Positions 9,791 through 26,233 of a stretch of DNA of 27,700 nucleotides are shown in pieces (the first letter of the stretch is position 1; every line of letters starts with the position of its first letter). A model generated the notes under the pieces. It saw nothing but the letters and a program-made list of their open reading frames with translations, was not told where the DNA came from and did not search any database. The stretch covers positions 1 through 27,700 of the forward strand of contig JAADDL010000046.1 in NCBI GenBank assembly GCA_013153915.1. The letters are read 5' to 3'. The position numbers were made by a program, and so were the translations under genes. This DNA is from Campylobacterota bacterium (GTDB lineage Bacteria; Campylobacterota; Campylobacteria; Campylobacterales; JALSKU01).

Positions 9791-12089
9791 GAGATACAAG
9801 ATAAAGATTGAGGGCGTAGTCCAAGGTGTGGGATTTCGTCCTTTTGTGTATAGTATCGCTAAAAAGCACGATATAAAAGGTTTTGTAAAAAACTCTTCGG
9901 AGGGTGTTTTTATAGAAGCGGAAGGGACAAAAGAGAGTTTGCAAAAGTTTTTACTGGAGTTTAAAACCTCTTTGCCTCCTCTTGCCAAGATAGATAAAAT
10001 CTCTTTGGAAAATATAGAGATAAAAGGAAGTTGCGATTTTAAGATAGAAAAAAGCACACACTCCGATACCAAATATGCCTCAATCTCTCCCGATATCGCT
10101 ATATGCGAGGATTGTCTTAGAGAGTTAAGAGATAAAAATGATAGAAGATACGGCTATTATTTGATAAATTGCACAAATTGCGGTCCTAGATATACTATCG
10201 TAGAGAGAGTGCCTTACGATAGGAAAAATACCTCAATGAAGAGGTTTAGGATGTGTAACGAGTGCGAAAAAGAGTATGAAGACCCAAGCGATAGACGCTA
10301 TCATGCTCAGCCTATCTCTTGCCATAAGTGCGGACCTTTGGTGAAATTTTACAAGACTTACAAAAAAGAGATATTAGCTAGCAATGAAGAGGCTATAAAA
10401 CTTTGCGCAAAAAGCATAAAAAGAGGCAATATCGTAGCCGTAAAGGGGCTTGGAGGTTTTCATATAGTGTGTAGTGCCACTTCTCCAAAGTCGGTTAAAC
10501 TGCTTAGAAAAAGAAAAAACAGACCCACAAAACCGTTTGCTGTGATGTTTAAAAGTATAGAGGAGATAAAAAAGGTAGCGATACTCACCGAAAAAGACGA
10601 GGAGTTGATACTCTCCAAAGAGAAACCTATCGTAATCGTCAAGAAAAAAGAGCCTCACAAATTTAGAAAAAGAGAGTTGCCTATCACCTCTTTTGTGGCT
10701 CCCGCTATCGATAGGATAGGGGTCTTTTTACCCTATACCCCTTTACATCATCTGCTTTTTGAATATATTGAGTGTCCTATCGTAGCTACAAGCGCAAATC
10801 TTAGTAATGAACCTATCATAAGAGATATAGACGAGTTGTGTCAAAAGCTTGATAATGTAGCGGATTATGTTTTGGATTTCAATAGAGATATCATCAATGC
10901 TTGCGATGATAGCGTGGTGCAAGCGGTAAATAACAAAAAAGAGACTCTTAGGCTCGCAAGAGGTTATGCCCCAAGATATCAAAAACTCCCCTTTAAGCTA
11001 AAAGATAAAGTACTTTGCGTGGGGGCAAACCAAAAAGCCACTATCACTTTGGCTTATGAAGATATTTTGGTGACAAGTCCTCACATCGGAGATCTTGGCA
11101 GTATAGAGTCTATGGAGTATTTTGAAAGGACTATAGAGAGCTTTAAGAGGTTTTACGATTTTGAGCCAAATATTATCGTTTGTGATAAACATCCAAGTTA
11201 CGAAACGACTAAGTGGGCAAAAGAGTACCAAAATAGCCATAGTGAAACAAAACTCTTTCAAGTCCAACACCACTACGCTCATATCCTATCTTGTATGGCG
11301 GAGTTTGATATCAATGAAAAAGTTTTGGGATTTAGCTTTGACGGTACGGGATACGGCGATGACGGAACTATATGGGGCGGAGAAGTCTTTGAATGCGATA
11401 CTAAGAGTTATGAGAGAATTTATCATTTTAAAGATATAAAGCTCATAGGAGCTAATAGGGCTATAAAAGAGCCAAAAAGAGTGGCTTTGGCTATGCTTTT
11501 TGAAGAGTACGGTTTGAAAGATACGCTAAAACTAAGCAATCCTACCGTAAAAAGCTTTACGAAAATCCAGATAAAAAATCTCTACACGATATGGAAAAAC
11601 ACAACGCTAAAAACCAGCTCTTTGGGTAGAGTTTTTGACGGAGTCGCCAGTCTTTGCGATATTTTGCAAGTGAGTAACTATGAGGGTGAAAGTGGGCTTA
11701 TTTTGGAGTCTTTTTATGACGGAAGCATAAAAGATAGTTTTGAATTTGATATCAAAGATAAAGAGATAGCTTTTAAGGATTTGGTGCAAAAAAGTTTAGC
11801 TATCATGAAAGAAAATCTAAATATAAAAGATAAAAAAAGAGCGGTTTCTACGATGTTTTTAAATACTCTTACAAAGATAATCCTTCGTATCTCTAAAGAA
11901 TCAAAGCTCGATACGGTAGTTTTAAGCGGAGGTGTTTTTCAAAACAAGACTCTTTTGGAGATGGCTACAAACGAACTTGAAAAGGCTGGTAAAAAGGTCT
12001 ATTTTCAGCAAAATACCCCTATAAATGACGGCGGTATCTCTTTGGGACAAGCTTGGTGGGCGGTAAAAAACTTAGACTCTCTATCCTAA
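9771..12089 (+). CDS. hypF: Carbamoyltransferase HypF
   Basis: Acylphosphatase GVVQGVGFRPF, Zn fingers CEDC/NCTNCGPRY/MCNECEKEY/CHKCGP, KGLGGFH, RPTKPFAVM, QHHYAH, FDGTGYGDDGTIWGGE and NDGGISLGQ. Confidence 0.97.
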   Translation: MRHLEIERYKIKIEGVVQGVGFRPFVYSIAKKHDIKGFVKNSSEGVFIEAEGTKESLQKFLLEFKTSLPPLAKIDKISLENIEIKGSCDFKIEKSTHSDTKYASISPDIAICEDCLRELRDKNDRRYGYYLINCTNCGPRYTIVERVPYDRKNTSMKRFRMCNECEKEYEDPSDRRYHAQPISCHKCGPLVKFYKTYKKEILASNEEAIKLCAKSIKRGNIVAVKGLGGFHIVCSATSPKSVKLLRKRKNRPTKPFAVMFKSIEEIKKVAILTEKDEELILSKEKPIVIVKKKEPHKFRKRELPITSFVAPAIDRIGVFLPYTPLHHLLFEYIECPIVATSANLSNEPIIRDIDELCQKLDNVADYVLDFNRDIINACDDSVVQAVNNKKETLRLARGYAPRYQKLPFKLKDKVLCVGANQKATITLAYEDILVTSPHIGDLGSIESMEYFERTIESFKRFYDFEPNIIVCDKHPSYETTKWAKEYQNSHSETKLFQVQHHYAHILSCMAEFDINEKVLGFSFDGTGYGDDGTIWGGEVFECDTKSYERIYHFKDIKLIGANRAIKEPKRVALAMLFEEYGLKDTLKLSNPTVKSFTKIQIKNLYTIWKNTTLKTSSLGRVFDGVASLCDILQVSNYEGESGLILESFYDGSIKDSFEFDIKDKEIAFKDLVQKSLAIMKENLNIKDKKRAVSTMFLNTLTKIILRISKESKLDTVVLSGGVFQNKTLLEMATNELEKAGKKVYFQQNTPINDGGISLGQAWWAVKNLDSLS

Positions 12090-14359
12090 TATAAATAACA
12101 TTTTTTAGCTCTTTTTGCTTTATTATATATCCTGTCTATGATTTTGGCGCTGTTTATCTTTTTCATAAGTTTTATAGCCAATTTGGATGTTTTGGGAGTA
12201 TTGCAAAGCATAGCTCTAAAAGTATAGTAAAGCGCTTTTTGGGGAGCCTTGTTGAGTATATTTTGGGCTTTTGCAAGAAGAAGATATCCGTAGTCCGTGT
12301 AGTTTGTGCCGAGATATTTAGCTTTGCCCGTTATGATATACAAAAGGTATCGGGCTTTCGAATTTGTGTTATAGCCTTTTATGGTGTAAATCGTACGCAG
12401 TGCTTTTTGTTTATCTTTTTTGTTGAGGTAGAATTTTGCCAATTTTATCTTTGCATCTTTTAAACCCAAAGAGGCGGCTTGTTTGTATAGTTGGATGATT
12501 TGTTTGTCATATTCGCCTTTTAGGTTTATTTTTCTTAGAAGGGTGGCTTTTTTGTAAATGGCATTATGGTATCCTTGGCTTATAGCTTTATCGTAGTAAA
12601 AGACGGCTTTTTGAGGGTTTAAATCGACACCATATCCGTTTGCATAGGCATCCGCTATGGTGAGGATTGAGCGTATGTCATCTTTTTCTTTTAGATAGTT
12701 TAAAGCTTTTTTAAAATCCCCTTCGACATATCTTGAGACGATAAGAGAGTAATATATGTCTTTTGCGTCGATATCGGACTCATCCAATAACTCTTTTAGC
12801 CATCTATCCATCTTTTTATAATCACAATTTTTTTTGTGAAAATCAACAAGATAGCGTTGGGCTTGCCTATTTTTCATTTGTGCGTAGTAGTAGTATATTC
12901 CCAAGGCTTTGTTTTCATCTTTTAGGATATTGTTATAGTAGTTTGCTATCTTCAAATCCTCGCTCGGGATATAAAAAGGCTTTTTCTCCAGCTTGCACGC
13001 TTTTTTGTAGTAAGAAAAACTCTTTTGCTTATCGGGATATATTTTGTTGGCATACAAGCTTCCAAGATAGTTTAGCGCCAAAATATTGTCTTGATTTGCA
13101 AAATACTCCAATGTTTTTCTATTTTTTTCTATATTTTTATATACCAAGGCTTCTTGGTAGGCTTTTTCTATAACGGCAGGGGTAAATTTGATATTTGTTA
13201 AATAGTTAAGATATTCATAATCCACCCTTTTTTCAAACCTCTTTTCATATTGATATAGATGCCAGTATGCTTGGGGTTTGTTTATGTGTTCGTACCATTT
13301 ATATATCTCTTTTGCCGATTTGCGGGAGTTTAGATATAGATATTTTTCGTATATTTTTGCCAAGATAAGCTTTGACTTGACATCTTGTTGAGAGTTTAAG
13401 AAGCTAACCGTGGAGTTCAAATCAAATCCGCTATAAGTTTTGTCGGAAAGCTCATAAGTGTTATCTTCGATATCAAGATCTATCAATCTATAAATAGCTT
13501 TTTTGTTGCCTAATCTATAAGATGACTTGTAAGCTTTTTGGATATTTTTTCTTGTAAAAATATCATTGTATTTGTAGATATAAAGTTTATCGTCAAATAG
13601 TTTTTTAGTCGTTTTAGAGTTGCTTGAGATGCACTTTTTGTTGTAAAGTTTTTCGTTTTCAACCATTTTGTCATATAGGTAATTTCCGACATAATATGCG
13701 GCTTTGGCATCTTTATACACCATCTCTTTTAACAAAGTGTAACCCTCTTTTTTATCCTCATTGTTTATAAGATAAACTCCAAGTATCACTTTTGCTTTAT
13801 CGTACCCTTGTCGTATCGCATTTTTGAGTAGTTTTTTAGCTCTTGTCGGGTTATAAAGAGGAGATTTTTTTAGGTAATATTTTCCAAGTTCCGTTTGAAA
13901 CTTTTTAAGGTCGGATTTGAGTGTAAAAGTGTAAAGTTTATCTAACAACTCTATCTTTTTATCAATGTTGTTTAGTCGGTCGAGTGCCGTTAGATAGTTT
14001 TTGAAATCTTTAGCCTTATAATCTTTGAAATCAACTTTTTCATACCATTTTAACGCATTTTGATACTCTTTTTCTCTAAAATATGAATCCGCTACATAGA
14101 TATTTGCTTTATCATATCCGTTTTCAAGGGCAAAAAGTGCGTATTTTCTCTCCGTAAAGGGCGGCTTTTTCACTCTATCAAGATAGATAAGTCTTGCGAT
14201 TTTTTCCGAAGCGTCAGGGAAGCCTCTTTTGGCATATTCGTAGTACTCCTCGTAGGCTTTTGCGTAATTTTTACTTCTATAATAATTTGCCGCCGCTCTT
14301 TTGTTGGCACACCCCGTAAATAAAAGCGATAAAACAAAAACTAAACTAAACAATCTCAT
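12086..14359 (-). CDS. algK: AlgK-like Sel1/TPR-repeat lipoprotein scaffold for polysaccharide export
   Basis: Lipobox LFTGC after MRLFSLVFVLSL, with AGGA 6 nt upstream of ATG 14359. Repeated Sel1-like units such as ALNYLGSLY and IADAYANGYGVDLNPQKAVFYYDKA. Last gene of the alg operon. Confidence 0.75.
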   Translation of the reverse strand: MRLFSLVFVLSLLFTGCANKRAAANYYRSKNYAKAYEEYYEYAKRGFPDASEKIARLIYLDRVKKPPFTERKYALFALENGYDKANIYVADSYFREKEYQNALKWYEKVDFKDYKAKDFKNYLTALDRLNNIDKKIELLDKLYTFTLKSDLKKFQTELGKYYLKKSPLYNPTRAKKLLKNAIRQGYDKAKVILGVYLINNEDKKEGYTLLKEMVYKDAKAAYYVGNYLYDKMVENEKLYNKKCISSNSKTTKKLFDDKLYIYKYNDIFTRKNIQKAYKSSYRLGNKKAIYRLIDLDIEDNTYELSDKTYSGFDLNSTVSFLNSQQDVKSKLILAKIYEKYLYLNSRKSAKEIYKWYEHINKPQAYWHLYQYEKRFEKRVDYEYLNYLTNIKFTPAVIEKAYQEALVYKNIEKNRKTLEYFANQDNILALNYLGSLYANKIYPDKQKSFSYYKKACKLEKKPFYIPSEDLKIANYYNNILKDENKALGIYYYYAQMKNRQAQRYLVDFHKKNCDYKKMDRWLKELLDESDIDAKDIYYSLIVSRYVEGDFKKALNYLKEKDDIRSILTIADAYANGYGVDLNPQKAVFYYDKAISQGYHNAIYKKATLLRKINLKGEYDKQIIQLYKQAASLGLKDAKIKLAKFYLNKKDKQKALRTIYTIKGYNTNSKARYLLYIITGKAKYLGTNYTDYGYLLLAKAQNILNKAPQKALYYTFRAMLCNTPKTSKLAIKLMKKINSAKIIDRIYNKAKRAKKCYLY

Positions 14360-14367
14360 ACCGTTTC

Positions 14368-16068
14368 CTAATGCCAATAGTATCTATAGTTTAAAAACAG
14401 TCTATAGATATCTTTATCTTCTAGGTACTCATACGCTTTTGAGCCCGCAAAGTACCCTATTCCTATTTTCAATTTTTGCGATTTGTTTTGGAGATATTGA
14501 TATACCAAATCAAATTCATTGCCTATCTCTTTGTCTTTCCCGTTTGTATAAAAGAAGTACTTATCGTTGAAGTTGGTCTTTGTCGGCGTATTTTGCCTAT
14601 AGTTGTGCAAAGAGGCTACTATACTTTTTTTCTCGTCCAAATCGTAGATGGCGTAAAGTGAGATGATTTGTAGATTTTCCAAAGCGGGGTCTATGATATT
14701 GCCGTAATATTTTATCTTTAGATTTTTACTCAAATAGTCCGAATCGTTACTTGCGATATACGGCTGGGTAAAGAGATCTTTCCCGCTTCCGTAAGCATAA
14801 TCAAAGGCGAAAGAGAGATTATCTTTGTAAGATAGTTTCGCCCCTATGTCAAATCCGTATCCGTCGGCTTTTTGGGTTGAATCGTATCTTGTGATATCCC
14901 CGTTGCTTATCCCCGCGTTTGCCCAATAAAAAAGGCTGTTTTTGTGTCCGTAAAGTTCCACGCCTACAAAAGATATGTCCCTTTTTTGCGTCTCTTCGTC
15001 ATTTGGTTTTGAATTTTCGTAAATATAGTATATGCCTATGTTATTTCGGTATCTATACTCATAGTTTGCGTGCAGTATCACGAAAAACGAATCTTTTAGT
15101 TTATAGTATCTGTCGTTATCGTCTATATTGACATTATCGTTAAATCTTGTAGCCAAAATAGCCTCATAATTTAAAAGATAATTTTCGCTAAAGAGTCTTA
15201 TTTGGTCTAAAGGAGCGTCATACCACCAAGATCTCAAATCCCTCGTCTTTTTTCTTCCAAGCAGTATGTTTGTCAAATCGTCATTTAAACAGTAGCTTCT
15301 TATATAAAGTTCGTTAATGTCAAGATCGATTCCGTTAGAGATATCGCCGTTGATATCTCTTCTTGAAAATATAAGCCTATCATCGGTATAAAATCTCCAA
15401 ATATCCCAAAAATATCTATCATAGATAAATCCGAGTTTTATATTTTCGTTATTGCCTCTTAACTTGGAGAGATATTTTTGACCTTCGTAGATATTTGCGT
15501 AAATATCCAGATAGAAAAAGTGGCGAGAGATAGAGGGGTGTTTGCAAGTTTGGTTTGACGGTGCAACTTGCGCAACCTCTTTGGCGGATATTTTTTCCCT
15601 GTCGTCTCTTTTTTGTTCGTTTTTCGATAGGTACTCTTTTACTTTTATCTCTATTTGCGCCAAACTCTTTTTGATATCTATCTCCCAAGGATAATCTTTC
15701 TCTTTTTTACATCCGCATTCGTTCCTGCAATAGCTTATATTTCGTTTTTTTCCTATTTTGCTATTTTGCCTTTTTGGCTTGATATCTATCACTTTTCCCA
15801 AGGAGGGGTTGTACTTTACGATAAGCGGATGTTTGTAGTATCTTTTTACTCTCTTTAAAAATTTTTTTGCGGATTTATAGTTTGCAAAAGGCTCTATTTT
15901 GTATTCGATAAATCTACTGTATCTTTTTATAATGCCGTTTGGAAATCTTTTTAAAAATTTGTAGGCGGCTTTTTGGTTTAATGTTTTTGAACTAAAGGCT
16001 ATGATGGCGTACTCTTTGGCAAGTAGCGGACTTATTAGCAAAAAGATAATAACAATCACTCTTTTCAT
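14368..16068 (-). CDS. algE: AlgE-like alginate export outer-membrane beta-barrel with N-terminal SPOR-like domain
   Basis: Signal peptide, INELY, LLGRKKTRDLRSWWYDAPLDQIR, many alternating aromatic strands, EIGNEFDL and terminal RLFLNYRYYWH. Operon context supports the call. Confidence 0.82.
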   Translation of the reverse strand: MKRVIVIIFLLISPLLAKEYAIIAFSSKTLNQKAAYKFLKRFPNGIIKRYSRFIEYKIEPFANYKSAKKFLKRVKRYYKHPLIVKYNPSLGKVIDIKPKRQNSKIGKKRNISYCRNECGCKKEKDYPWEIDIKKSLAQIEIKVKEYLSKNEQKRDDREKISAKEVAQVAPSNQTCKHPSISRHFFYLDIYANIYEGQKYLSKLRGNNENIKLGFIYDRYFWDIWRFYTDDRLIFSRRDINGDISNGIDLDINELYIRSYCLNDDLTNILLGRKKTRDLRSWWYDAPLDQIRLFSENYLLNYEAILATRFNDNVNIDDNDRYYKLKDSFFVILHANYEYRYRNNIGIYYIYENSKPNDEETQKRDISFVGVELYGHKNSLFYWANAGISNGDITRYDSTQKADGYGFDIGAKLSYKDNLSFAFDYAYGSGKDLFTQPYIASNDSDYLSKNLKIKYYGNIIDPALENLQIISLYAIYDLDEKKSIVASLHNYRQNTPTKTNFNDKYFFYTNGKDKEIGNEFDLVYQYLQNKSQKLKIGIGYFAGSKAYEYLEDKDIYRLFLNYRYYWH

Positions 16069-18683
16069 GGAGTGTCCTTTAAAAGTTCGTATATCTTTTG
16101 CTTTTTTATCTTGTCGAGTCTAAAGCGGTTGATTTTATTTAGATATGTCGGTATATAAGGCTCGATGGTTCTAATGATATTTTTTTTATCTTCATTGTAG
16201 TATTGCAGTAAGCTTTGGTTGATGTGTTTTAGTCTTATGGACACTTGCTTGCATCCAGGGTCGTCTTTGATGAGTTCGTTGTCTTTTAAGAGTTTTTTAT
16301 AATAAAGCTTTTTCGGTCTGTTGGTCTCTTTGAAAAGTTTTATAATTTTTTTGATGACACTCGGGGTAAAGATAGTAAAATTTTTCTCCTCTATTTTGCA
16401 ATATTCAAGGTAGTTTTTTGCTTTTGAATGTTTAAAATTGTATTCAAATAGTTTCCATGCCGACTCAATCTTTGCCTTTTTTCTTATATCGATACGGCAC
16501 TTTGCGGATAGTTCCTCATCCGTCATTTTATATGACTTGACTCTATCTAACGCTATTTTAAAAGCTTTTGTGATATCTTTTTTCGATATCGGTACGGCAT
16601 AGATAAGTTGATATATGTCTATTTTGGCGTTACTATTTCCAAATATGACACTTTGGGCTATATAGCTTAGAGCTTTTATATACTCTTTTTTGCTTTTTGC
16701 TTTGGGTAGCAAAAAGTATCCGTATGAGAGCATATCGTTGGGGTGCAGTTGCGATATGCCTCTTATGTACTCTCTTTTGGCGCTTTGGTAATCATTTTGA
16801 GCCGAAAAGCGAATCTTGGCTAAAATCTCTTGATTGTAGTCGTTATAACATGATGAGTCTATATATATCTTTACGGCTTCTTGTACAGTTTGTTTGTTTA
16901 GTCTTATTAGGTCTATACTTTTACCTCGAAAAGGGTTGCCAAGACCGTAAAGTTTAAATTTACCGCCGTTTTTTTCTATTTGACTTGTAAATATATTTAA
17001 TTCGCTTCCGAAATTTGGATAGTATCTGTTTTTTAGAGCATTATCTTGCAAATATAGTGCGGCGTTGTTTTTTGCCGTTAAGTTATTTAAAATATTGTTT
17101 GCTATTTTATTGTCTTTGATATATGCGGAGGTTGCTTTATGGTACGGGTCTCTTGCGAAATCTCTATATATCATGCCGTCAATATTTTTACTCATCACCT
17201 CTATACCGTTTTTGGCGTTATAGATGACGCTATTTTTTAAGATACTGTTTCTTAGGGAGTTTCTTATGATGATGCCGTCTATTTTATTTCCGATGATTTT
17301 GTTTTTATATATTAGTTCGTTATCGCTCTCTTGGACGGATATCCCCATATAGCCGTTTAGTGCCGAAAGATTGTCGTATATGAGGTTATTGTTGGATAAT
17401 CTATCGAGCATTATGCCTGCAGAGTGGTTGTTGAAAGTCAAGTTTTGAGCTATTATCGTATTGTTTACCTGTCTTGATATGACTATGCCGTGAGCGTGTT
17501 TCGCTCTTGCCGTTATGTTTCTTGCTATTATAAGGTTGTTTGAGTAGTCGTGAGGGTCAATGTTGTATATGAGATTATCGTGCATTAGATTTCCGATAAG
17601 TGCGCTATTTTTTGATTCGGAGCAGTAAAATCCCATCATATTATCTACCATAGTATTGCCGACATAGTAGCCTTGCGGCATACCGAAGCTATTTAGATAA
17701 GAGAACAAAGAAAATCTTTTGACTATTAAATCTTTTGGAAAATGTAGCAATGAGATACCGAATGTTGCGGAGGTCGAGTGAAAGCCGAGACCTTTAAACG
17801 TGTTGCCGATATAGTAATTTTTTGAGCCCGTAAGCCCTATGATGCATGGACGAGGTTTTTGAAGCCCTATGAGTAAAAGTTCATTTTCGGGTATCTTTTC
17901 TCTTTTATCGTAACTGTTTGTGTTTGAGTTCCAAGTGATAAATTTTGTATTTTTTGCGTAGATATCTCCGTGATTCATGATAAAGACGGGTTTTGGAGTG
18001 GTTTGTAGCAATACGGTCGCATCTTCAAATATCAGCTTTGCCGTAGGCGAAACATATATGGGAGTTTTTAAAATATATCTATTTTTTCCTAATTTGTCGA
18101 TGATTTTTCGATTTGAGATTTTTTTGTATAGATATCTTAAAGAGTATGTTCCGTTGTATAGCACCATAACTTTCGTCGCAAAACGGTGTCTTTTGTAATA
18201 TTTATAAAAACTATATAGGTTTATGGTAGGCATAAATGTTATCTTAGACATATCCACAAAGTCTATGCCGTTGCCGTAGAATCTCTTTGGAAATTTTAAA
18301 AGCAGTTTTTCGGGCGTATATCTTGAGAGGATTTTTTCTATATTTTTAGGTTTTACGCTTGATGGACGGGGAAATATGACATATTGGTCTTTGAAAGATG
18401 CTTTGTGTTTTATTATTTTTGGATTTTTAAAGTTAAAATCCAAACGGTGCAGTGAATCGTTTGCGTCTTGAAATGTTTTGTAGCATCCTACAAAAGATAT
18501 GTTCGAGTCTCTTGATATCTTTTCGTTCAATAGCGGGCATTGGGGTTGTGTATAGTTTAAATTGTCTTTGAAATTAAACGGATAAACGGGGGTAAACAGT
18601 CCCGTTTCGCTCCTTATTGAGTAGCAATAACCGCCAAAAAGCTCTATCGCTAAAAAAAGATACAAAAGACTCTTTTTAAGCAT
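16065..18683 (-). CDS. algG: AlgG-like mannuronan C5-epimerase (beta-helix) with extra N- and C-terminal domains
   Basis: Catalytic segment NLIYNIDPHDYS (DPHD at 17547-17558) followed by HGIVISRQVNN and GIMLDR, as in AlgG. Asn-rich parallel beta-helix repeats. Confidence 0.9.
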   Translation of the reverse strand: MLKKSLLYLFLAIELFGGYCYSIRSETGLFTPVYPFNFKDNLNYTQPQCPLLNEKISRDSNISFVGCYKTFQDANDSLHRLDFNFKNPKIIKHKASFKDQYVIFPRPSSVKPKNIEKILSRYTPEKLLLKFPKRFYGNGIDFVDMSKITFMPTINLYSFYKYYKRHRFATKVMVLYNGTYSLRYLYKKISNRKIIDKLGKNRYILKTPIYVSPTAKLIFEDATVLLQTTPKPVFIMNHGDIYAKNTKFITWNSNTNSYDKREKIPENELLLIGLQKPRPCIIGLTGSKNYYIGNTFKGLGFHSTSATFGISLLHFPKDLIVKRFSLFSYLNSFGMPQGYYVGNTMVDNMMGFYCSESKNSALIGNLMHDNLIYNIDPHDYSNNLIIARNITARAKHAHGIVISRQVNNTIIAQNLTFNNHSAGIMLDRLSNNNLIYDNLSALNGYMGISVQESDNELIYKNKIIGNKIDGIIIRNSLRNSILKNSVIYNAKNGIEVMSKNIDGMIYRDFARDPYHKATSAYIKDNKIANNILNNLTAKNNAALYLQDNALKNRYYPNFGSELNIFTSQIEKNGGKFKLYGLGNPFRGKSIDLIRLNKQTVQEAVKIYIDSSCYNDYNQEILAKIRFSAQNDYQSAKREYIRGISQLHPNDMLSYGYFLLPKAKSKKEYIKALSYIAQSVIFGNSNAKIDIYQLIYAVPISKKDITKAFKIALDRVKSYKMTDEELSAKCRIDIRKKAKIESAWKLFEYNFKHSKAKNYLEYCKIEEKNFTIFTPSVIKKIIKLFKETNRPKKLYYKKLLKDNELIKDDPGCKQVSIRLKHINQSLLQYYNEDKKNIIRTIEPYIPTYLNKINRFRLDKIKKQKIYELLKDTP

Positions 18684-19801
18684 TATCTTTTTCCGGACTC
18701 TTTGTCTATCTGATACCAGTCGTACTTATTTAGTAGCGTATCTATAGTGATGACCGCACTTGTTCCTATAAACTCCTTGGGAGGTTGAAAATCTATCGGT
18801 TTTAAGAGTATTTTGTCATAATTTCTAGCTTGATTATATATATTTTCCAAAGGTCTTGTATGCTCTTCTATCGGCTTGTACGGAAATTCGGCTTTTACCA
18901 CTTTTGCGTAAAATTTCTCTCCGTTTAAAAGTTGAACTACGGCGATATCCCCCTCTTTTATCTTAAAAAGGTCTTTATGCAGGATATTTGCCGTCAAGTA
19001 TATCTCGTAGTTTTTTTCCAATATCACAAAAACAGGTTCCCCCACATTTCTAAAGTCGCCGTTGTGAATCATAATTTTGTAAAGTATTCCGTCAAGCGGG
19101 GATTTGACGGCTTTTATGCCTCCATACATCAAGTGAGCGTACATTAGCGCTTGAGTGGTGTTTATCTCTTCGTTCGGTTTAAAATCTTTTGCAAATTCTA
19201 TATATGAAGGGGAGGGCGCTCGTATGATAGTCATATTCGTATCGAAAAAGGCGTTTTCACTCTTTACGATATATGTTCTTTGGTACATAACAAATAGCAA
19301 AAACAGAAGTAAAAAGATGATGAAAGACCATAGTATCAACAGCACCAAGATAGACTTTTTTTTATCAATTTTTGTCTTTTTCTCTTTTTTGTGCATAAAA
19401 TTGGCTCTTGTGACCGCATGGATAATGTCATCTTCGGTGATTATATCTCCCGAGAGATACGATGAAATGATTTGGTTTAGTATGGAGATTTGCTGAGGTG
19501 TCAAATCCGTAAATCTAACGCCTACTATATTGTCCGACCTTTTAGATACGAATTCTAGTTTTAGATTGTCTATAACCGTTTCAAAGTCGTCAAACCTAAA
19601 TATCATTTTTGCGGTTAAACTCTTTTTTTTGAAGAGTTCTTCGGATAAACCCTCTATGCCGGCGCCCGAAACGGACCAGTCATAAACTCTATATTTTTGC
19701 CCCTCTATCTCTATGGTTGCGGGTATTTTGTACCTAGCGTGCTGTCTTGTAAGTTCCGCCTCATGTACGATTTGACCCTCTTTGTGACTATCTTTACCCA
19801 T
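18683..19801 (-). CDS. alg44: Alg44 c-di-GMP-binding co-polymerase (PilZ + TM + membrane-fusion-like domain)
   Basis: IVHEAELTRQHAR (RxxxR) and DWSVSG (DxSxxG), a single TM helix and a periplasmic MFP-like region. TAATG overlap with algG. Confidence 0.92.
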   Translation of the reverse strand: MGKDSHKEGQIVHEAELTRQHARYKIPATIEIEGQKYRVYDWSVSGAGIEGLSEELFKKKSLTAKMIFRFDDFETVIDNLKLEFVSKRSDNIVGVRFTDLTPQQISILNQIISSYLSGDIITEDDIIHAVTRANFMHKKEKKTKIDKKKSILVLLILWSFIIFLLLFLLFVMYQRTYIVKSENAFFDTNMTIIRAPSPSYIEFAKDFKPNEEINTTQALMYAHLMYGGIKAVKSPLDGILYKIMIHNGDFRNVGEPVFVILEKNYEIYLTANILHKDLFKIKEGDIAVVQLLNGEKFYAKVVKAEFPYKPIEEHTRPLENIYNQARNYDKILLKPIDFQPPKEFIGTSAVITIDTLLNKYDWYQIDKESGKR

Positions 19802-19810
19802 TATTTTCTC

Positions 19811-21328
19811 CTATATCCAATCGAAATATGCCCATAAATCATCGAAATTTATATTTTGAACTAAAAAGTTCACGATTATCAAGAAAAATAGAAATTGCGC
19901 CAAAAGCATACTATTTGAGCTAAATATCTGATACCAGGCGCTAAATCTATCTCCCGCACTCAATTTTGTCTTTTGCCTTGTCCATGACTGTTTGTATAGA
20001 TGATTCCAGATATATATCTTGACAAACGAGCCTACTATCTGGTTGTAGTACAAAAAAAACGGCCAGCTTGGCAAGATATCCTCCCTGGATGTTCTATAAG
20101 CGAATGTCATCAAAAGCCTACTTAGTAAAACCCACCAAAGATATGCTCCAAATACATACGCTCCCCAGTGAATAGCGCCGAAAAACGCTATAAATAGACC
20201 GTATGGAGATGTCCACATGGTAAATCTTTGGTCCCACAGAGCGTACCAAGCGTATGAGCCAAGCACCTCTTTTGGTACGTCAAGCGCTCTTTTGTTTGTT
20301 CGGTATTGGTTTCCAAACCATCTTTGCATAAGCATAAGCGAGCCGATAAAATAGTTTTTGTGAGGTATCTCCTCTATAGTGTAGACCATCACATCGGGAA
20401 CATATAGCATATCCCATCCGTTTTTTATCACATAGTACCAGCTTGATTTGTCGTCTCCGGTTAAAAATCTAAACCTTCCAAGCCTCCAGTGTTCTATAAA
20501 ATCGTTTTGTACGGTATCGACAAATTCTCTATCGGCGACTATGTTGGCTCTTATCATGGACATTCTGCCGGTGAGCGTAAGAACTCTGTTTGATAACGCC
20601 AAAGAGGACATATTGACATTTCTTTGGGCAAATCTTAGTCTATACCATCTTCTGTATATATTTGTGACAAAATCTTTTCCGTCGAGTCTGGCGTCCTCAT
20701 CCGTCGTCAACGCTCCTAATTTTTCGTTGAGTCCGAAAAGTCTTGCCGATTTTCTTAAAGTTCCCGTAGATAGTATCGAATCACCGTCCACAACGGCGAC
20801 TACGGACCTAAAAAGATTGACCGGAGAGTTCGCTATCACTCTAAAGCCGACGGATAGTCCGTCTCTTTTGCCCGTACCGGCTATCTTGGAGATGATAAGT
20901 TTTACTCTTTTTGGAGGGTTTAACTCCAAAAATATTTTTCTAACAAGCCTCTCTTCGCTCATCTCCACTATAGAAGCTATAAGGGTGACATCATATCCGC
21001 ACTCTATAGCCTCTTTGATAGCGGCTCTGTAGACTTCGGCGGAAACGCTTGTACCTATCCTAAAAGTGGTTATCAAGATAAATATATGCTCGGGGTCGAT
21101 ATCGTCATTTGAGTTTTGCTCCATTTCTCTTATCTTTTTAAATCTAATCTTTTTATATATCAAAGACCTGGCGATATTCAAAGAGAACCAAGTGTATCTC
21201 CATATACCGACAAGTCCCAAGAAAAATATCAATTTTCTTGCATATGGGTCAAACTCTTGATACGGTATCAAAAAGCCTATGATAAGGATAAACAAGATGT
21301 AGATAAGAAAATATAGAGCCGTTTTCAC
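19811..21328 (-). CDS. alg8: Alg8 mannuronan polymerase (GT2)
   Basis: GTGKRDGL, VVDGDS, VLTLTGRMS, FRFLTGDDKSSWY and LMQRWFGN (LxxRW), with N- and C-terminal TM helices. GTG start. Confidence 0.94.
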   Translation of the reverse strand: MKTALYFLIYILFILIIGFLIPYQEFDPYARKLIFFLGLVGIWRYTWFSLNIARSLIYKKIRFKKIREMEQNSNDDIDPEHIFILITTFRIGTSVSAEVYRAAIKEAIECGYDVTLIASIVEMSEERLVRKIFLELNPPKRVKLIISKIAGTGKRDGLSVGFRVIANSPVNLFRSVVAVVDGDSILSTGTLRKSARLFGLNEKLGALTTDEDARLDGKDFVTNIYRRWYRLRFAQRNVNMSSLALSNRVLTLTGRMSMIRANIVADREFVDTVQNDFIEHWRLGRFRFLTGDDKSSWYYVIKNGWDMLYVPDVMVYTIEEIPHKNYFIGSLMLMQRWFGNQYRTNKRALDVPKEVLGSYAWYALWDQRFTMWTSPYGLFIAFFGAIHWGAYVFGAYLWWVLLSRLLMTFAYRTSREDILPSWPFFLYYNQIVGSFVKIYIWNHLYKQSWTRQKTKLSAGDRFSAWYQIFSSNSMLLAQFLFFLIIVNFLVQNINFDDLWAYFDWI

Positions 21329-21341
21329 CTGTTTTTATCTC

Positions 21342-22658
21342 CTAAACTATCCTAAAGTAGTTATCTTGTGAGATTATGTCCTCAACAGCCGCCACGTCTA
21401 TCACTATTTTATCTTTATATTTTTTATAAAGCCCTTTAAATCTATCCTCTTTGTTGCCTATTATCAAAACTTCGGAGTTTGCTATAACATTTTGCAAATC
21501 ATCGCTCAATCTTTCGTTGATATGACTTAGTTCTCCCTCCAAAAGAGATTTTGCCGAAGCGTCATTTTTTGCTTTAACTACGGTATCGTCATAAATCGCC
21601 ACACTATATCCTTTGCCTATAAGCATCTCCGCTAGTTCAAGCATGGGAGATTCTCTCAAGTCATCGGTTCCGGGTTTGAAACTAATCTTTAATATACCTA
21701 TTTTTCTCTTTTTTAGGGGTTTGATGTAGCTATTGAAAACTCTTTTTATCTGATATTCGTTGCTCTGCATCAATGAATTTAGCAAAGGGGTATTTTCGTC
21801 TATCTCTTTTGCCTTGTAGGTAATGGCTCTGACATCTTTAGGCAAGCAACTACCCCCAAAGGCAAAGCCCGGTTTTAGATAGTAGCTTGATATGTTTAGC
21901 TTTCTATCCGCACAAAATATATCCATAACTTTGTGAGAGTCTATTTTAAGCTTGGAGCAGATTAAGCCTATTTCGTTTCCGAATGTTACTTTGGTGGCAT
22001 GCCAAGAGTTGTCGGCATATTTTACCATTTCCGAAGTCTCTATCTCGGTTTTAAACAAAGGCGACTCTTTCGTGTCTATAAATGAGTAAAGCTCTTCAAG
22101 TATATCGGCGGTTTTTTCGTCGCTTGCCCCTATGACCGTTTTTGGCGGATGGTAAAAATCCCAAATAGCCGTGCTTTCTCTTAGAAATTCGGAGTTTGAA
22201 GCGTATCCGAAATCAACTCCGACTTTTTTGCCGGAATATTGTTCGACTATAGGTATCACCACCTCTTTTCCAGTGCCCGGAAGCACCGTACTTCTCATGG
22301 CTATCACATGAAATTCGTTTTTATCCTTTAGCGACAATCCTATCTCTTTTGAAACCTCTTTGATATATCTTAAATCTATGCTACCGTTTTCTCTTGAGGG
22401 TGTGCCGACGGCTATAAAAGTTATTTGAGTTTTCTTAACGGCACTTTTCAAATCCGTAGATGCCTTCAATCTTCCGTCTTTTACATTTTTTTCGATAAGT
22501 TTATCCAAATCCTTTTCTATGATGGGAGTTTTGCCTCTGTTTATAAGCTCTACCTTAGTATCGTCTATATCTACGCCTATAACATTGTGTCCTTCATTGG
22601 CGAGTGCGGCACTGCATACCGCTCCGACATATCCCAATCCCACTATCGAAATATCCAT
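21342..22658 (-). CDS. algD: GDP-mannose 6-dehydrogenase
   Basis: GLGYVG, EFLRESTAI, EMVKYADNSWHATKVTFGNE, YYLKPGFAFGGSCLPKD (catalytic Cys) and SFKPGTDDLRESP. Confidence 0.93.
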   Translation of the reverse strand: MDISIVGLGYVGAVCSAALANEGHNVIGVDIDDTKVELINRGKTPIIEKDLDKLIEKNVKDGRLKASTDLKSAVKKTQITFIAVGTPSRENGSIDLRYIKEVSKEIGLSLKDKNEFHVIAMRSTVLPGTGKEVVIPIVEQYSGKKVGVDFGYASNSEFLRESTAIWDFYHPPKTVIGASDEKTADILEELYSFIDTKESPLFKTEIETSEMVKYADNSWHATKVTFGNEIGLICSKLKIDSHKVMDIFCADRKLNISSYYLKPGFAFGGSCLPKDVRAITYKAKEIDENTPLLNSLMQSNEYQIKRVFNSYIKPLKKRKIGILKISFKPGTDDLRESPMLELAEMLIGKGYSVAIYDDTVVKAKNDASAKSLLEGELSHINERLSDDLQNVIANSEVLIIGNKEDRFKGLYKKYKDKIVIDVAAVEDIISQDNYFRIV

Positions 22659-22659
22659 T

Positions 22660-23376
22660 TCAATCCTTTATAATCAATTTATCAAATAGTACTTTAGCGC
22701 AACCGATATCTTGCATATATACGCCCGCTTTAAAGTAGTTGTAGTATTGTTTCCAATATCCTACATACATATCAACCTTTTTTGTATTGTTTATGTAGAT
22801 TTTTAGCATATTGTTCGCTACCGTAATCTTGACGTCAAAAAATGTTTTTGGCATCTTTCCCAAATCTATCTTTTTATAGTGGCTAAATTTGCTCCAATTT
22901 AACCTAACTATAGCCCAAATATGCCCCTTTTTGCCTTTTAGCTTCTTATACCAAACAACCCTAAGCAGAGGTTTGTTTATCGTCGGTCTATCTTTTAGGG
23001 TGCTATCGGCGTGTATTTGTAAAAATGTAAACTCCCTTTTGGAATTTAGAGGAAATAGCTTTACTCTTGCTTGGAGGATTTTTTCGTTTTCGTCGCTAAC
23101 TTTCCATATATTTTTCGCTCTTAGTTCACTTCTGTTACGCTCTCCGCACATTTTAAAGACCATATATCTTCTATCTTGCAAATAAAAAAATTTATTTGAA
23201 TACGCTTCAAAATCCCCGTATTTTCTGCCGAACATCGGATCATAAGGGCTTGAGGGCGCTTGTAGTTTGGATTTGTTTAGTATATCTTTAAACTTATCCA
23301 AAGAGTACGGCGAGTCGTGCGCAAAAGATAAAACGGCTATGATAAAAAGCGATAAAAATGCTTTAAACCCTATCAT
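22660..23376 (-). CDS. Exported PL7-family alginate lyase
   Basis: All three PL7 motifs are present: RSELR, QIH and YFKAGVYMQ. Signal peptide present. Start placed at the second ATG (23376) because GAGG abuts ATG 23382. Confidence 0.92.
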   Translation of the reverse strand: MIGFKAFLSLFIIAVLSFAHDSPYSLDKFKDILNKSKLQAPSSPYDPMFGRKYGDFEAYSNKFFYLQDRRYMVFKMCGERNRSELRAKNIWKVSDENEKILQARVKLFPLNSKREFTFLQIHADSTLKDRPTINKPLLRVVWYKKLKGKKGHIWAIVRLNWSKFSHYKKIDLGKMPKTFFDVKITVANNMLKIYINNTKKVDMYVGYWKQYYNYFKAGVYMQDIGCAKVLFDKLIIKD

Positions 23377-24751
23377 ATTCATCCTCGTATCTTATGATAT
23401 CGTCTTCTCCAAGATACTCTCCCACTTGTATCTCTACGATTTTCAACGGCACTTGCCCGGGGTTGGATAGCCTATGTTTTTGCCCTATTGAGATATATGA
23501 GGATTCGTTAGGTCGTAAAAGAAAAGTATCGTCCTCTTTTGTGACTTCGGCTATACCTTTTACGACAACCCAATGTTCGCTACGGTGCATATGCTTTTGT
23601 AAAGATAGTTTTTTGCCCGGGTTTACCGTGATGATTTTTACCTTAAAGTTAGGATACTCTTTTAGTACGGTATATTTCCCCCAAGGTCTATAGACGCTTC
23701 TTCCGAACTTTATCACTTCGGGGTTGGTTTTTTTAAGCTTTTGAACTATCTCTTTGATGCTTTGAGAATCTCCCCTTTTTGTTACCAGTAAAGCGGTAGG
23801 GGTATCTATAACGATAGTGTCGTCTATATCTTTTAGCACGATTTGTTGTTTGTATCTTCCGAAGACAAGGTTTTTTTTCGAATCTATAGCCAAAAGTTTT
23901 TCGTTTTGCGTGTTTAGATTTTCATCTTTAGGTAACACTTCATAAAGCGAGTCAAAATCCCCGACATCTTTCCAGTCTATATCGGAAACGACCGTCTTTA
24001 TCTTTTTGCTATGCTCCATAACCGCATAGTCAATGCTTTGGTCTTTTATCTGAGACATATCTTCTTTGTTTATCCTGATATAATCTCTCTTTTTCGAATT
24101 TTCGTAAGCCTTTTTAGAGGCTTCGTAGATATCGGGCGCATAGTTTTTTAACTCTTGAAGATAGGTTTTGGCTTGAAACATAAACATCCCGCTATTCCAA
24201 AAATAGTCGCCTTCTTGTAGATATCTTTTTGCGGTAGCGATATCGGGCTTTTCAGTAAAAGAGGCTACCTCACAAACCCTATCTTCGCAATTTTTCGTTT
24301 TGATGTATCCGTATCCCGTATTGGGTGTTGTCGGCGTTATCCCAAAGGTCACCAAATACCCCCTTTGGGCTTCTTTTTTAGCTTTTGATACGGCGTTTTT
24401 ATAATTGTCGTCGCTTTTTATCAAATGGTCGGAAGGTGTGACGAAGAGTATCTCGTCCTCATCTACGCAAAAAGCGCTAAAAGCTATCGACGCGGCGGTA
24501 TTTCTACCCATAGGTTCAATAACGGACGTATAGTTTTCGATACCCGTCTCATCAAGTTGGTCGGTAGCTAAAAAGTATTGATTTTCGTTTGAGACGATGA
24601 TAAAGTTGTCGCAAAAAGCGCTATTTCTTTTGATAGTCATTTGAAAAAGAGAGTCATCCTCAAACATCTTTAAAAACTGTTTCGGTAAATTTTCTCTACT
24701 GATAGGCCAAAGCCTTGTTCCGCTTCCGCCGCACAATATAGCGTTTGTCAT
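23363..24751 (-). CDS. algA: Bifunctional mannose-1-phosphate guanylyltransferase / mannose-6-phosphate isomerase (AlgA/ManC)
   Basis: ILCGGSGTRLWPISR, PKQF, EPMGRNTA, FTEKPD, WNSGMF, SIDYAVME, WKDVG, and a cupin with RPWG and LSLQKHMHRSEHWVVV. Confidence 0.95.
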   Translation of the reverse strand: MTNAILCGGSGTRLWPISRENLPKQFLKMFEDDSLFQMTIKRNSAFCDNFIIVSNENQYFLATDQLDETGIENYTSVIEPMGRNTAASIAFSAFCVDEDEILFVTPSDHLIKSDDNYKNAVSKAKKEAQRGYLVTFGITPTTPNTGYGYIKTKNCEDRVCEVASFTEKPDIATAKRYLQEGDYFWNSGMFMFQAKTYLQELKNYAPDIYEASKKAYENSKKRDYIRINKEDMSQIKDQSIDYAVMEHSKKIKTVVSDIDWKDVGDFDSLYEVLPKDENLNTQNEKLLAIDSKKNLVFGRYKQQIVLKDIDDTIVIDTPTALLVTKRGDSQSIKEIVQKLKKTNPEVIKFGRSVYRPWGKYTVLKEYPNFKVKIITVNPGKKLSLQKHMHRSEHWVVVKGIAEVTKEDDTFLLRPNESSYISIGQKHRLSNPGQVPLKIVEIQVGEYLGEDDIIRYEDEYDRV

Positions 24752-24776
24752 ATATACCCTTATATAATTTTTCTTT

Positions 24777-24807
24777 ATTATATCTTTTTTTCTTAAATAA
24801 AAAGATA
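24777..24807 (-). promoter_or_regulatory. alg operon -10 box with overlapping 9-9-9 inverted repeat
   Basis: Minus-strand TATAAT at 24782-24777. Inverted repeat TATCTTTTT (24781-24789) / AAAAAGATA (24799-24807). Confidence 0.4.
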
Positions 24808-24826
24808 AAACGGCTTCAAAATAGGC

Positions 24827-25480
24827 TTAAATTAGCCCTTTAATAATCTCAAATCTACTTTTTTCGTCATAATTAAATCTAAATTCACACTCTTTTAAAT
24901 AGTAAAAAAAGTTTTCCCTTTTTACACCTTTATATTTGACTATCTCATTTTCAAAGAAATTCCAAAATTTGACTATCAAATTTTCCCTTTTTTGGAGTTT
25001 TGATATCTTGTTAAACATCATAAAGTTGGAAAACTCTTTGTAGTAAGCTTGGTCTATCCCGTCGCTTAAAAGTTCATTTTTGTACTTATTAAGACTTGGC
25101 AGTAAAAGGTTGTATATCTTATTTTCATAATGAAAGGTCAAGAAATCCACCGCATCGAAAATCTTGCTCTGTTCTTTCTTTTTGGATTTTTCCAGGTAGA
25201 TATATTCGTCATACTCTATCACCTCTTTGCCTTGAAAATTCTCTTCGCAAAATAGGGCTATTTTTTTTCGAAACAAATCGTATCTTTTTTTTACGGTTAG
25301 GTAATTTAGGGAAGTTTTATTAGAACACTCAAGAGCGTTTAAACCTTTGCAAAAGCATTCGAGTATATTTAACTCTTTTTCTATCTTTTTGGGGCTGAAT
25401 TTTCTTTTGCATACTTTGCATTTTAGGTAGCCGTTTTTAAGGGTGTAAAAAGTTTCGTTTTCGCAATATTTACACTTCAT
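24827..25480 (-). CDS. IS1595-family (ISXO2/IS1016-like) transposase-derived protein, apparently catalytically degenerate
   Basis: Zn ribbon C3/C6/C21/C24, an HTH-like segment, IEYDEY, and FW...KYKGV...YLKECEFRFN C-terminus. The NxIExFW glutamate is replaced (NLIVKFW). No terminal inverted repeats found by eye. Confidence 0.75.
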   Translation of the reverse strand: MKCKYCENETFYTLKNGYLKCKVCKRKFSPKKIEKELNILECFCKGLNALECSNKTSLNYLTVKKRYDLFRKKIALFCEENFQGKEVIEYDEYIYLEKSKKKEQSKIFDAVDFLTFHYENKIYNLLLPSLNKYKNELLSDGIDQAYYKEFSNFMMFNKISKLQKRENLIVKFWNFFENEIVKYKGVKRENFFYYLKECEFRFNYDEKSRFEIIKGLI

Positions 25481-25594: not shown

Positions 25595-26233
25595 ATGCAT
25601 ATACCTGACGGATATCTTTCGCCCGAAACCTGTATAGCGACCTATGCGGTAGCGGTTCCATTGTGGGTTTACGGATTTAAAAAGTTAAAATCGACTTTAA
25701 ATGAAGAGACTTTGCCGCTTATAGGGGCTTTGAGCGCCGTTAGTTTTGTTATCATGATGTTTAACATCCCGATACCCGGAGGCACTAGCGGACACGCCGT
25801 AGGGGCGGTGCTTATAGCGATGCTTTTTGGTCCTTGGATCGGCTTTGTATCGGTATCTTTGGTGCTACTTATCCAAGCTTTGGTCTTTGGCGACGGTGGA
25901 GTATCGACTCTTGCGGCAAACGCATTGTCGATGGCTTTTGTGGGCTCTTTTGCTGGATATTACGCTTTTGAAGCTTTAAAGAGATTTAGATTTGCACCGT
26001 TTTTTGCGGGATGGGTAGGTATAGTCGCCTCTTCCGCACTCACGGCTTTGCTTCTTGGTATCCAGCCTCTTTTTTGGACAAAAGGCGGACACCCTTTGTA
26101 TTTTCCGTTTGATTTGAAGACCGCTTTTGTAGCGCTTGTGGGTTCTCATATGCTGTTTTTCGGAGTAGCGGAGGGCATCTTTACCGCCATAGCTTACTCA
26201 TATCTTAGAAAAAAAGAGAGGAGTTTGGCATGA
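25595..26233 (+). CDS. nikM: ECF nickel/cobalt transporter S component (NikM/CbiM type; nickel favoured)
   Basis: N-terminal metal-binding MHIPDGYL (NikM-type, versus MHIMEG in CbiM), GTSGHAVG and FGDGG, with multiple TM helices. Confidence 0.88.
   Translation: MHIPDGYLSPETCIATYAVAVPLWVYGFKKLKSTLNEETLPLIGALSAVSFVIMMFNIPIPGGTSGHAVGAVLIAMLFGPWIGFVSVSLVLLIQALVFGDGGVSTLAANALSMAFVGSFAGYYAFEALKRFRFAPFFAGWVGIVASSALTALLLGIQPLFWTKGGHPLYFPFDLKTAFVALVGSHMLFFGVAEGIFTAIAYSYLRKKERSLA

Follow-up and report, generated by a model that had tools for sequence, protein, structure and literature searches.

The window analysed here is the whole of contig JAADDL010000046.1, 27,700 nucleotides from a metagenome-assembled genome (MAG) of a hydrogen-oxidising vent member of the Campylobacterota (GCA_013153915.1; 1.25 Mb in 177 contigs, 65% complete). 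Its minus strand carries eight co-oriented genes, from 24751 down to 12086, in the order algA, alginate lyase, algD, alg8, alg44, algG, algE and algK. We consider it likely that these genes form a functional, horizontally acquired, synthase-dependent operon for an alginate-type exopolysaccharide, built to a 'vent' architecture that differs from that of Pseudomonas in both the set and the size of its envelope components.

The eight open reading frames lie between two groups of plus-strand genes: on one side those for a [NiFe] hydrogenase, its maturation proteins and HypF, with the end of hypF at 12089, and on the other a cbiM-type metal transporter gene that starts at 25595. Read from algA to algK, the successive junctions measure -20, +1, +13, +9, -1, -4 and -10 nt, a spacing typical of a translationally coupled operon, and all eight frames are full length relative to their orthologues in at least 10 other loci. 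The original prediction, made from the letters alone, had placed eight co-oriented genes with overlapping or near-adjacent junctions at 12086-24751, had assigned them in the order given above and had described their catalytic motifs as intact. The span is exact, the assignments are borne out by the profile, identity and fold evidence set out below, and every catalytic or ligand motif that we checked is present.

The first and third genes encode precursor enzymes. AlgA (23363-24751, -; 462 residues), a bifunctional mannose-6-phosphate isomerase and GDP-mannose pyrophosphorylase, scores 559.7 bits against the TIGR01479 equivalog model, whose cut-off is 373, and matches the Pfam families NTP_transferase and MannoseP_isomer. 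AlgD (21342-22658, -; 438 residues) matches the GDP-mannose 6-dehydrogenase of P. aeruginosa (1MFZ/1MV8) with 483 bits (E 7e-144), whereas the highest-scoring UDP-glucose dehydrogenase reaches 249; it contains the catalytic motif GGSCLPKD and is 50-53% identical to AlgD of Pseudomonas and Azotobacter, where algD adjoins alg8. The MAG also holds two phosphoglucomutase/phosphomannomutase (PGM/PMM) genes and six genes for GGDEF cyclases, of which the complete cluster-bearing genomes have 22-35, and the supply of precursor and of signal looks adequate.

Polymerisation is represented by Alg8 and Alg44. Alg8 (19811-21328, -; 505 residues), a family 2 glycosyltransferase (GT2) of the polymannuronate synthase type, is 42-43% identical to the Pseudomonas and Azotobacter proteins across residues 8-490, and its motifs K154-R-D156, D181-G-D183, TGDDKS (290-295) and RW (336-337) show no variation between the window and Pseudomonas. 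The protein falls inside the Alg8 tree and not in a non-alginate synthase clade, the outcome that the original prediction had named as fatal to its claim. Alg44 (18683-19801, -; 372 residues), the co-polymerase, begins with a PilZ domain, crosses the membrane once and continues into a periplasmic membrane-fusion domain. Its best match in the PDB is the Alg44 PilZ domain 4RT1, the ligand motifs R19xxxR23 and D41xSxxG46 are kept in 11 of 11 orthologues, and the domain is a predicted binder of cyclic di-GMP (c-di-GMP); a hydrophobic helix follows at about residues 147-175 and an HlyD_3 match at 232-296. In one Caminibacter pacificus-type genome (G055), a gene for a membrane-bound GGDEF diguanylate cyclase precedes algA by about 600 nt, on the strand that carries algA (L094:16842-17822; G055:C2, about 284.8-285.8 kb), and we regard the cyclase as a candidate for a dedicated c-di-GMP source for Alg44 in that organism.

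AlgG (16065-18683, -; 872 residues) is a long form of the mannuronan C5-epimerase. Its N-terminal module (about 19-103) is followed by a beta-helix (about 140-583), and this by an all-helical tail (597-868). It aligns with P. syringae AlgG (4NK6) at E 2e-40, with the catalytic DPHD at residues 376-379, and this motif and the other residues that are invariant across 18 AlgG sequences are all intact. The AlphaFold2 (AF2) model of the protein (pLDDT 89.5, pTM 0.90) finds AlgG by Foldseek at 5.5e-24 (TMt 0.91) and superposes on it by VIA with a Z score of 36.2 and a root mean square deviation of 1.9 Å, over model residues 109-552; the next-best fold matches are the epimerase module of Azotobacter AlgE4 and an alginate epimerase/lyase. 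The tail is confidently modelled as all-helical, with seven short helices followed by long ones. It is linked to Sel1 or TPR repeats by weak signals, namely a match to 6DEH at 1e-3, 32% by hhalign against AlgK, and scores close to 0.81 for Atlas features. A word-indexed search with it retrieved eight close relatives only. Pfam gave nothing significant for the AlgG tail, the AlgG N-terminus or the N-terminal half of AlgK. We therefore describe the tail as helical and weakly Sel1-like and leave it at that, since the beta-helix dominates the fold-search matches of the whole model.

The outer-membrane protein AlgE (14368-16068, -; 566 residues) combines an export barrel with an additional N-terminal domain. 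The sequence matches the Alginate_exp family (PF13372) at 3e-17, and P. aeruginosa AlgE is also matched. In the AF2 model (pLDDT 74.8) the barrel occupies about residues 181-566 (14368-15528, -); the top 17 Foldseek matches are all P. aeruginosa AlgE (E 3e-23), followed by porins at 2e-12, and VIA gives a Z score of 37.8 to 4XNK, the next porin reaching 28.3. Residues 20-85 (15814-16011, -) are modelled with pLDDT 82-88 as beta-alpha-beta-beta-alpha-beta. A profile built from 11 orthologous copies of this module found 597 proteins among 1.84 billion representatives, and in 9 of 10 sampled matches other than AlgE the Pfam SPOR domain lies at the matched place. The AlgE orthologue of a Desulfurobacteriaceae MAG itself passes the Pfam SPOR model (PF05036) with 31.3 bits, the cut-off being 21. 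On the model and the module profile, we assign the N-terminus of AlgE as a predicted SPOR domain, a type of domain that binds peptidoglycan. Whole-model fold searches with AlgE or AlgG are swamped by the barrel or the beta-helix, and the SPOR module and the AlgG tail were not isolated in them.

Within the SPOR-coding part of algE we observed a 34-nt direct repeat (15850-15883 and 15946-15979, 79% identity, 96 nt apart), which encodes KAAYKFLKRF and KSAKKFLKRV in the two alpha-helix halves and mirrors the duplication within the SPOR fold itself. The disordered linker that leads from this domain to the barrel contains the cysteine-rich stretch CRNECGC at residues 114-120 (15709-15729, -), followed by a conserved WE; these cysteines recur in most Campylobacterota AlgE orthologues. 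Similarity to the AlgE module was seen in two further proteins of the pathway. The N-terminal module of AlgG is modelled as beta followed by beta-alpha-beta-beta, with residues 30-60 poorly modelled, and hhalign relates it to the AlgE SPOR module at 85%, over the 32 columns of a beta-alpha-beta stretch only; the Pfam SPOR model has no match at the AlgG N-terminus in 10 orthologues. The Alg44 proteins of the Caminibacter type (L094:9642-11237 in G055; L095:9198-10790 in G015) are about 530 residues long and, after a low-complexity linker, have a C-terminal SPOR module that hhalign relates to that of AlgE at 98.8%. No such module is present in the Alg44 of the window, which probably lost its SPOR end by deletion after transfer.

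The last gene, algK (12086-14377, -), overlaps algE by 10 nt and encodes a long form, 763 residues, of the Sel1/TPR-repeat outer-membrane lipoprotein AlgK, for which an ATG at residue 7 is a likelier start than the TTG at 14377. The protein is built of Sel1 repeats, and a G-C-A lipobox is invariant in 10 orthologues. Its profile retrieves Sel1 proteins (2e-29) as well as AlgK, the latter at 1.4e-14 for 7ULA_B and 1.7e-12 for 3E4B; we call the gene algK because of its context beside algE. The greater length of both proteins is common to the group: in the vent-clade Campylobacterota loci that hold the complete gene, AlgG has 830-886 residues and AlgK 757-791, and a Desulfurobacteriaceae locus encodes an AlgG of 830 residues and an AlgK-like lipoprotein of 660. 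AlgG of ordinary size is found on the neighbouring branches, in a Methylomarinum MAG and in another Campylobacterales MAG.

The second gene of the operon (22660-23382, -) encodes a protein of 240 residues with a signal peptide, which matches Alginate_lyase2 (PF08787), the Pfam family of polysaccharide lyase family 7 (PL7), at 2.4e-30 and has the alginate lyases 7W13 and AlyC3 as its best PDB matches (5e-26). The PL7 blocks RSELR (83-87), QIH (122-124) and YFKAGVYMQ (216-224), together with Cys79 and Cys228, are kept in nine of nine orthologues, and the protein is a predicted PL7 alginate lyase. It is 51% identical to the lyase of Nitratiruptor (L096), whose gene lies directly downstream of algK and whose product has Cys80 and Cys232. 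These we take to be the two residues reported to stabilise the enzyme NitAly (NIS_0185), which ties the Nitratiruptor gene to NitAly, and the lyase of the window is then, as judged from its sequence, a NitAly orthologue. NitAly reportedly prefers polyM. Reviews that cite the original work describe it as a characterised thermophilic PL7 alginate lyase with an optimum of 70 °C. A locus for alginate catabolism was considered as an explanation of the lyase and rejected: the window contains no genes for uptake or for the DEH pathway, and the lyase gene is embedded among biosynthesis genes.

Several components of the Pseudomonas system were searched for in four cluster-bearing genomes that are 99-100% complete, with a Pseudomonas genome as a control that was positive for each family. 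No member of the ALGX family (PF16822; AlgX and AlgJ) was found in these four genomes or in the MAG of the window, the control giving two matches, and the same two sets of sequences gave no MBOAT protein (PF03062; AlgI). AlgF (PF11182) and the PL5 lyase AlgL (PF05426) were likewise not found in the four genomes; in place of AlgL, the operon of the window contains the PL7 lyase. The original prediction had called the operon complete; this holds for its eight genes, all of which are intact, and does not hold for AlgX, AlgL, AlgI, AlgJ and AlgF, which are missing. Given that there is neither an O-acetylation machinery nor AlgX, the product should be a non-acetylated alginate.

The cluster is patchily distributed across the phylum. 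In the window's family, 3 of the 11 genomes have Alg8; the figures are 2 of 22 for Nitratiruptoraceae, 8 of 30 for Nautiliaceae (which have one distant GT2 in addition) and 5 of 401 for an even sample of the phylum. In one genome of the genus Caminibacter, the only counterpart of Alg8 is a GT2 with 34% identity (G412:C71:18503-19960), which may belong to a different synthase family. The same genes occur in two genera of Nautiliaceae, in Nitratiruptoraceae, in the window's own genus and in Desulfurobacteriaceae; all eight are intact in at least 10 loci of three Campylobacterota families and Desulfurobacteriaceae, and this conservation across families indicates purifying selection. A further locus, L003 (JALUWO010000225.1), is labelled 'Candidatus Gracilibacteria bacterium', and its cluster is almost identical to that of G010, a genome of the window's genus; it is probably a misbinned Campylobacterota contig in a public MAG.

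The relationships of the operon differ from those of its surroundings. All eight proteins of the window are 55-84% identical to those of the Caminibacter-type genome G055, as against 33-68% to those of the same-genus genome G010. For the flanking HypF the relation is reversed, with 56% identity to G055 and 75% to G010, and with 71-75% to its own genus as a whole and 55-56% to the Caminibacter-type genomes. A tree of seven concatenated proteins places the window inside the Caminibacter pair with an SH-aLRT support of 100. A common origin with the same-genus clusters is rejected by an approximately unbiased (AU) test, with p = 1e-43 for the concatenated proteins and p = 0.026 for Alg8 alone, values which are descriptive because the tested group was named after the identities had been seen. 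Phylogenies, which the original prediction had proposed as a means of finding the donor, thus point to a Caminibacter-like Nautiliaceae lineage, from which we infer that the operon was acquired.

The insertion site can be compared directly. The slot between hypF and a gene for a Zn-ribbon protein is empty in G055, where the two genes abut; it is occupied by nnrS in G010 and by the 12.7-kb alg operon in the window, in which the stop codons of hypF and algK overlap by 4 nt. At the borders of the operon we found no repeats, direct or inverted, that were convincing, and the cbiM side carries no clear genus signal. The Zn-ribbon gene itself (24827-25480, -; 217 residues, CxxC...CxxC) has a tail with a faint resemblance to IS1595 transposases (E 0.056). 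It also lies beside hypF in G055 and G015, which belong to another family, and in the same-genus G010, and since it is conserved at this place in other families we do not count it as cargo. Misbinning of the contig was considered and is not supported, in view of the affinity of HypF to its own genus and the position of the Zn-ribbon gene beside hypF in G010 as well. Between this gene and algA, the 75 nt at 24752-24826 (-) are a possible operon promoter, with TATAAT at 24782-24777 and the ribosome-binding site AAGGG at 24761-24757. A consensus promoter scan of the region upstream of algA gave nothing above chance, as did a scan for terminators, and no hairpin was found after algK.

From these observations, we propose the following route. 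GDP-mannuronate would be supplied by AlgA, by a phosphomannomutase encoded elsewhere in the genome and by AlgD, and would be polymerised by Alg8 at the inner membrane when Alg44 binds c-di-GMP through its PilZ domain. In the periplasm, AlgG would convert part of the mannuronate to guluronate, and AlgG with its helical tail would form a conduit together with the long Sel1-repeat lipoprotein AlgK. The secreted PL7 lyase may clear stray polymer, which is the task of AlgL in Pseudomonas, and the chain would leave the cell through AlgE in the outer membrane. The SPOR domain of AlgE and the possibly related partial module of AlgG probably pin the machine to the peptidoglycan.

A bolder proposal, which we put forward with some doubt, is that this is a distinct, AlgX-free alginate machine: held by SPOR anchors on AlgE, AlgG and the Alg44 of Caminibacter, with the AlgG tail and a double-length AlgK in place of the AlgX/AlgK scaffold and a heat-stable PL7 enzyme in place of AlgL, it would make non-acetylated alginate directly from CO2 and H2, in thermophilic chemolithoautotrophs. 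To our knowledge, Pseudomonas and Azotobacter are the only bacteria in which experiments have shown alginate, and if the proposal is true the vent organisms would provide the first bacterial alginate demonstrated outside the Pseudomonadota. They also offer a natural experiment, in which a secretion complex has to manage without AlgX and without acetylation.

Several observations weigh against reading the locus as an alginate operon of the kind described. In Pseudomonas AlgX, an SGNH/CBM protein, is required for polymer, and its absence here means that the Pseudomonas model does not apply unchanged. The MAG is only 65% complete, so that the absences found in the four complete genomes are not proven for this genome itself. 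The SPOR copy in the AlgE of the window is below the Pfam threshold. AlgK and generic Sel1 proteins are not separable by sequence alone, the generic score being the higher. As to expression, one 267-nt contig of a vent metatranscriptome (X5) matches alg8 (20576-20842) with two mismatches, which is weak evidence given that DNA may have been carried over in the library; near-identical DNA turns up in two metagenomes, one from a hydrothermal vent and one labelled as epibiont (run X2). Finally, we found no paper that shows an alginate polymer in Campylobacterota or Aquificota, and the statement of the original prediction that no such demonstration was known in the phylum still stands.

The doubts about the product can be given the form of two alternatives. 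One is that the operon makes a related but different polyuronate, either a pure polymannuronate, with AlgG mainly a scaffold, or a polymer modified in a way unlike that of Pseudomonas. The deep separation of the vent clade from the Pseudomonas clade in the Alg8 tree, the two extra domains on AlgG, the reported preference of NitAly for polyM and the lack of acetylation genes are in keeping with it; however, the intact DPHD and invariant residues of AlgG, on a beta-helix that superposes at 1.9 Å, would be needless in an inactive scaffold, and we judge this alternative unlikely. The other is that no high-molecular-weight product arises, whether because the lyase degrades the chain to oligouronides in the periplasm or because the operon is silent. 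In Pseudomonas the loss of AlgX, AlgK or AlgG leads to degraded uronic acid oligomers, and ALGX-family proteins were not found in the four complete genomes, which is what would lead one to expect such an outcome. The eight genes have nevertheless stayed intact across lineages down to 21-48% identity and through at least one horizontal transfer, which is hard to reconcile with a useless product. Moreover, the AlgG tail and the longer AlgK co-occur only in examined loci without AlgX-type genes, a pattern that fits compensation for the loss, and we think it very improbable that the operon yields no polymer.

A third alternative concerns the contig and not the product, namely that assembly or binning joined the alg cluster of a Caminibacter-like organism to the hydrogenase and cbi flanks of another. 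The MAG is fragmented as well as incomplete, the cluster is closest to that of another family, and the hypF/algK junction is spanned by none of the listed contig pieces from the public DNA runs. Yet on either side the neighbouring genes point to the genus of the MAG itself, the overlap of the two stop codons leaves no intergenic seam, and another public contig, 28,166 nt long, encodes an identical AlgG; nor is the cluster that of a known Caminibacter assembled together with this genome, given that its proteins are 55-84% identical to their nearest Caminibacter counterparts. We regard an artefact as the least credible of the three alternatives. A functional, horizontally acquired alginate-type operon is thus the interpretation that we prefer.

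Operons of this type have been catalogued before, and the window is a further member. Bundalovic-Torma et al. (2020; PMC7112194) list an 'Alginate' operon for Nitratiruptor sp. SB155-2 (NC_009662) and for Thermovibrio ammonificans in their supplementary tables and speak of 'atypical alginate operons' in deep-sea bacteria; the coordinates of the cluster in our genome G050 are those that table S3 gives for Nitratiruptor sp. SB155-2. The alg homologues and the PL7 lyase that the original prediction had mentioned for this strain therefore exist, and they are orthologous to those of the window. The Alg8 cluster nearest to the window (85% identity) holds Caminibacter pacificus proteins, of which QCI27760.1 bears the name 'Glycosyltransferase Alg8' in UniRef. 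A paper on the Nitratiruptor transcriptome under Cd and Cu does not mention genes of the alg cluster. In the papers that could be read we did not find described the SPOR domain of AlgE, the helical tail of AlgG, the long AlgK or the consistent absence of AlgX, AlgL, AlgI, AlgJ and AlgF, nor the use of a NitAly-type PL7 enzyme as the lyase of the operon or the transfer from a Caminibacter-like donor.

A conserved and mobile alg operon in dominant primary producers of vents suggests that alginate-like gels help to build vent biofilms, and such gels might bind the divalent metals that are abundant there. Caminibacter pacificus and Nitratiruptor sp. SB155-2 are cultured organisms in which this can be tested. 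For biotechnology, the operons hold out the prospect of non-acetylated alginate made autotrophically and of thermostable enzymes.

With the operon of Pseudomonas and Azotobacter, whose order is algD-8-44-K-E-G-X-L-I-J-F-A, that of the window shares its synthase-dependent logic and an orthologous core of AlgA, AlgD (53%), Alg8 (43%) and Alg44 (23%, with the same PilZ motifs), as well as AlgG (28%, with the same fold and DPHD), the AlgE barrel (Z 37.8) and an AlgK-type lipoprotein. It differs in gene order, in having no AlgX, AlgL, AlgI, AlgJ or AlgF, and in a PL7 enzyme that replaces the PL5 lyase. Its AlgG has 872 residues as against about 540, with extra domains at both the N- and the C-terminus, its AlgK has 763 as against about 470, and its AlgE is extended at the N-terminus by a SPOR domain with a disordered linker. 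The hosts of the vent clade, unlike Pseudomonas and Azotobacter, are thermophilic or mesophilic vent chemolithoautotrophs.

Within that clade, Nitratiruptor sp. SB155-2 has an AlgG of 886 residues, an AlgK of 762, a SPOR-bearing AlgE and an adjacent PL7 gene, with 28-62% identity to the window. Its genes are arranged differently, as D-8-44-G-E-K-lyase, its AlgE of 758 residues has two SPOR copies, and algA lies 5.5 kb upstream. Three co-oriented genes stand between algA and algD (L096:13936-19478), for a PP2C phosphatase, a Ser/Thr kinase of 1020 residues with WD40 repeats and an AAA protein, and this trio may add a phospho-signalling module to the cluster. The Alg8 tree places Thermovibrio ammonificans HB-1 and the other Desulfurobacteriaceae, which belong to the phylum Aquificota, as sister group to the Campylobacterota clade (98 SH-aLRT). 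Like the window, the Desulfurobacteriaceae locus L014 encodes a long AlgG (830 residues), an AlgK-like lipoprotein and an AlgE, whose SPOR domain here reaches significance in Pfam; unlike it, it has algA on the opposite strand, and no PL7 lyase was found in it. The lipoprotein gene (L014:10457-12439), whose product of 660 residues has TPR/Sel1 repeats and a VGCA lipobox, follows directly after algE. The hidden Markov model survey of PMC7112194 lists no AlgK-like gene for Thermovibrio. Closest of all are the clusters of the Caminibacter pacificus type (G055 and G015), which have the identical order A-lyase-D-8-44-G-E-K and contain the nearest relatives of all eight proteins; they differ from the window in the extra C-terminal stretch of about 160 residues, ending in the SPOR module, on Alg44, in their location elsewhere on the chromosome and in the GGDEF gene close upstream of algA.

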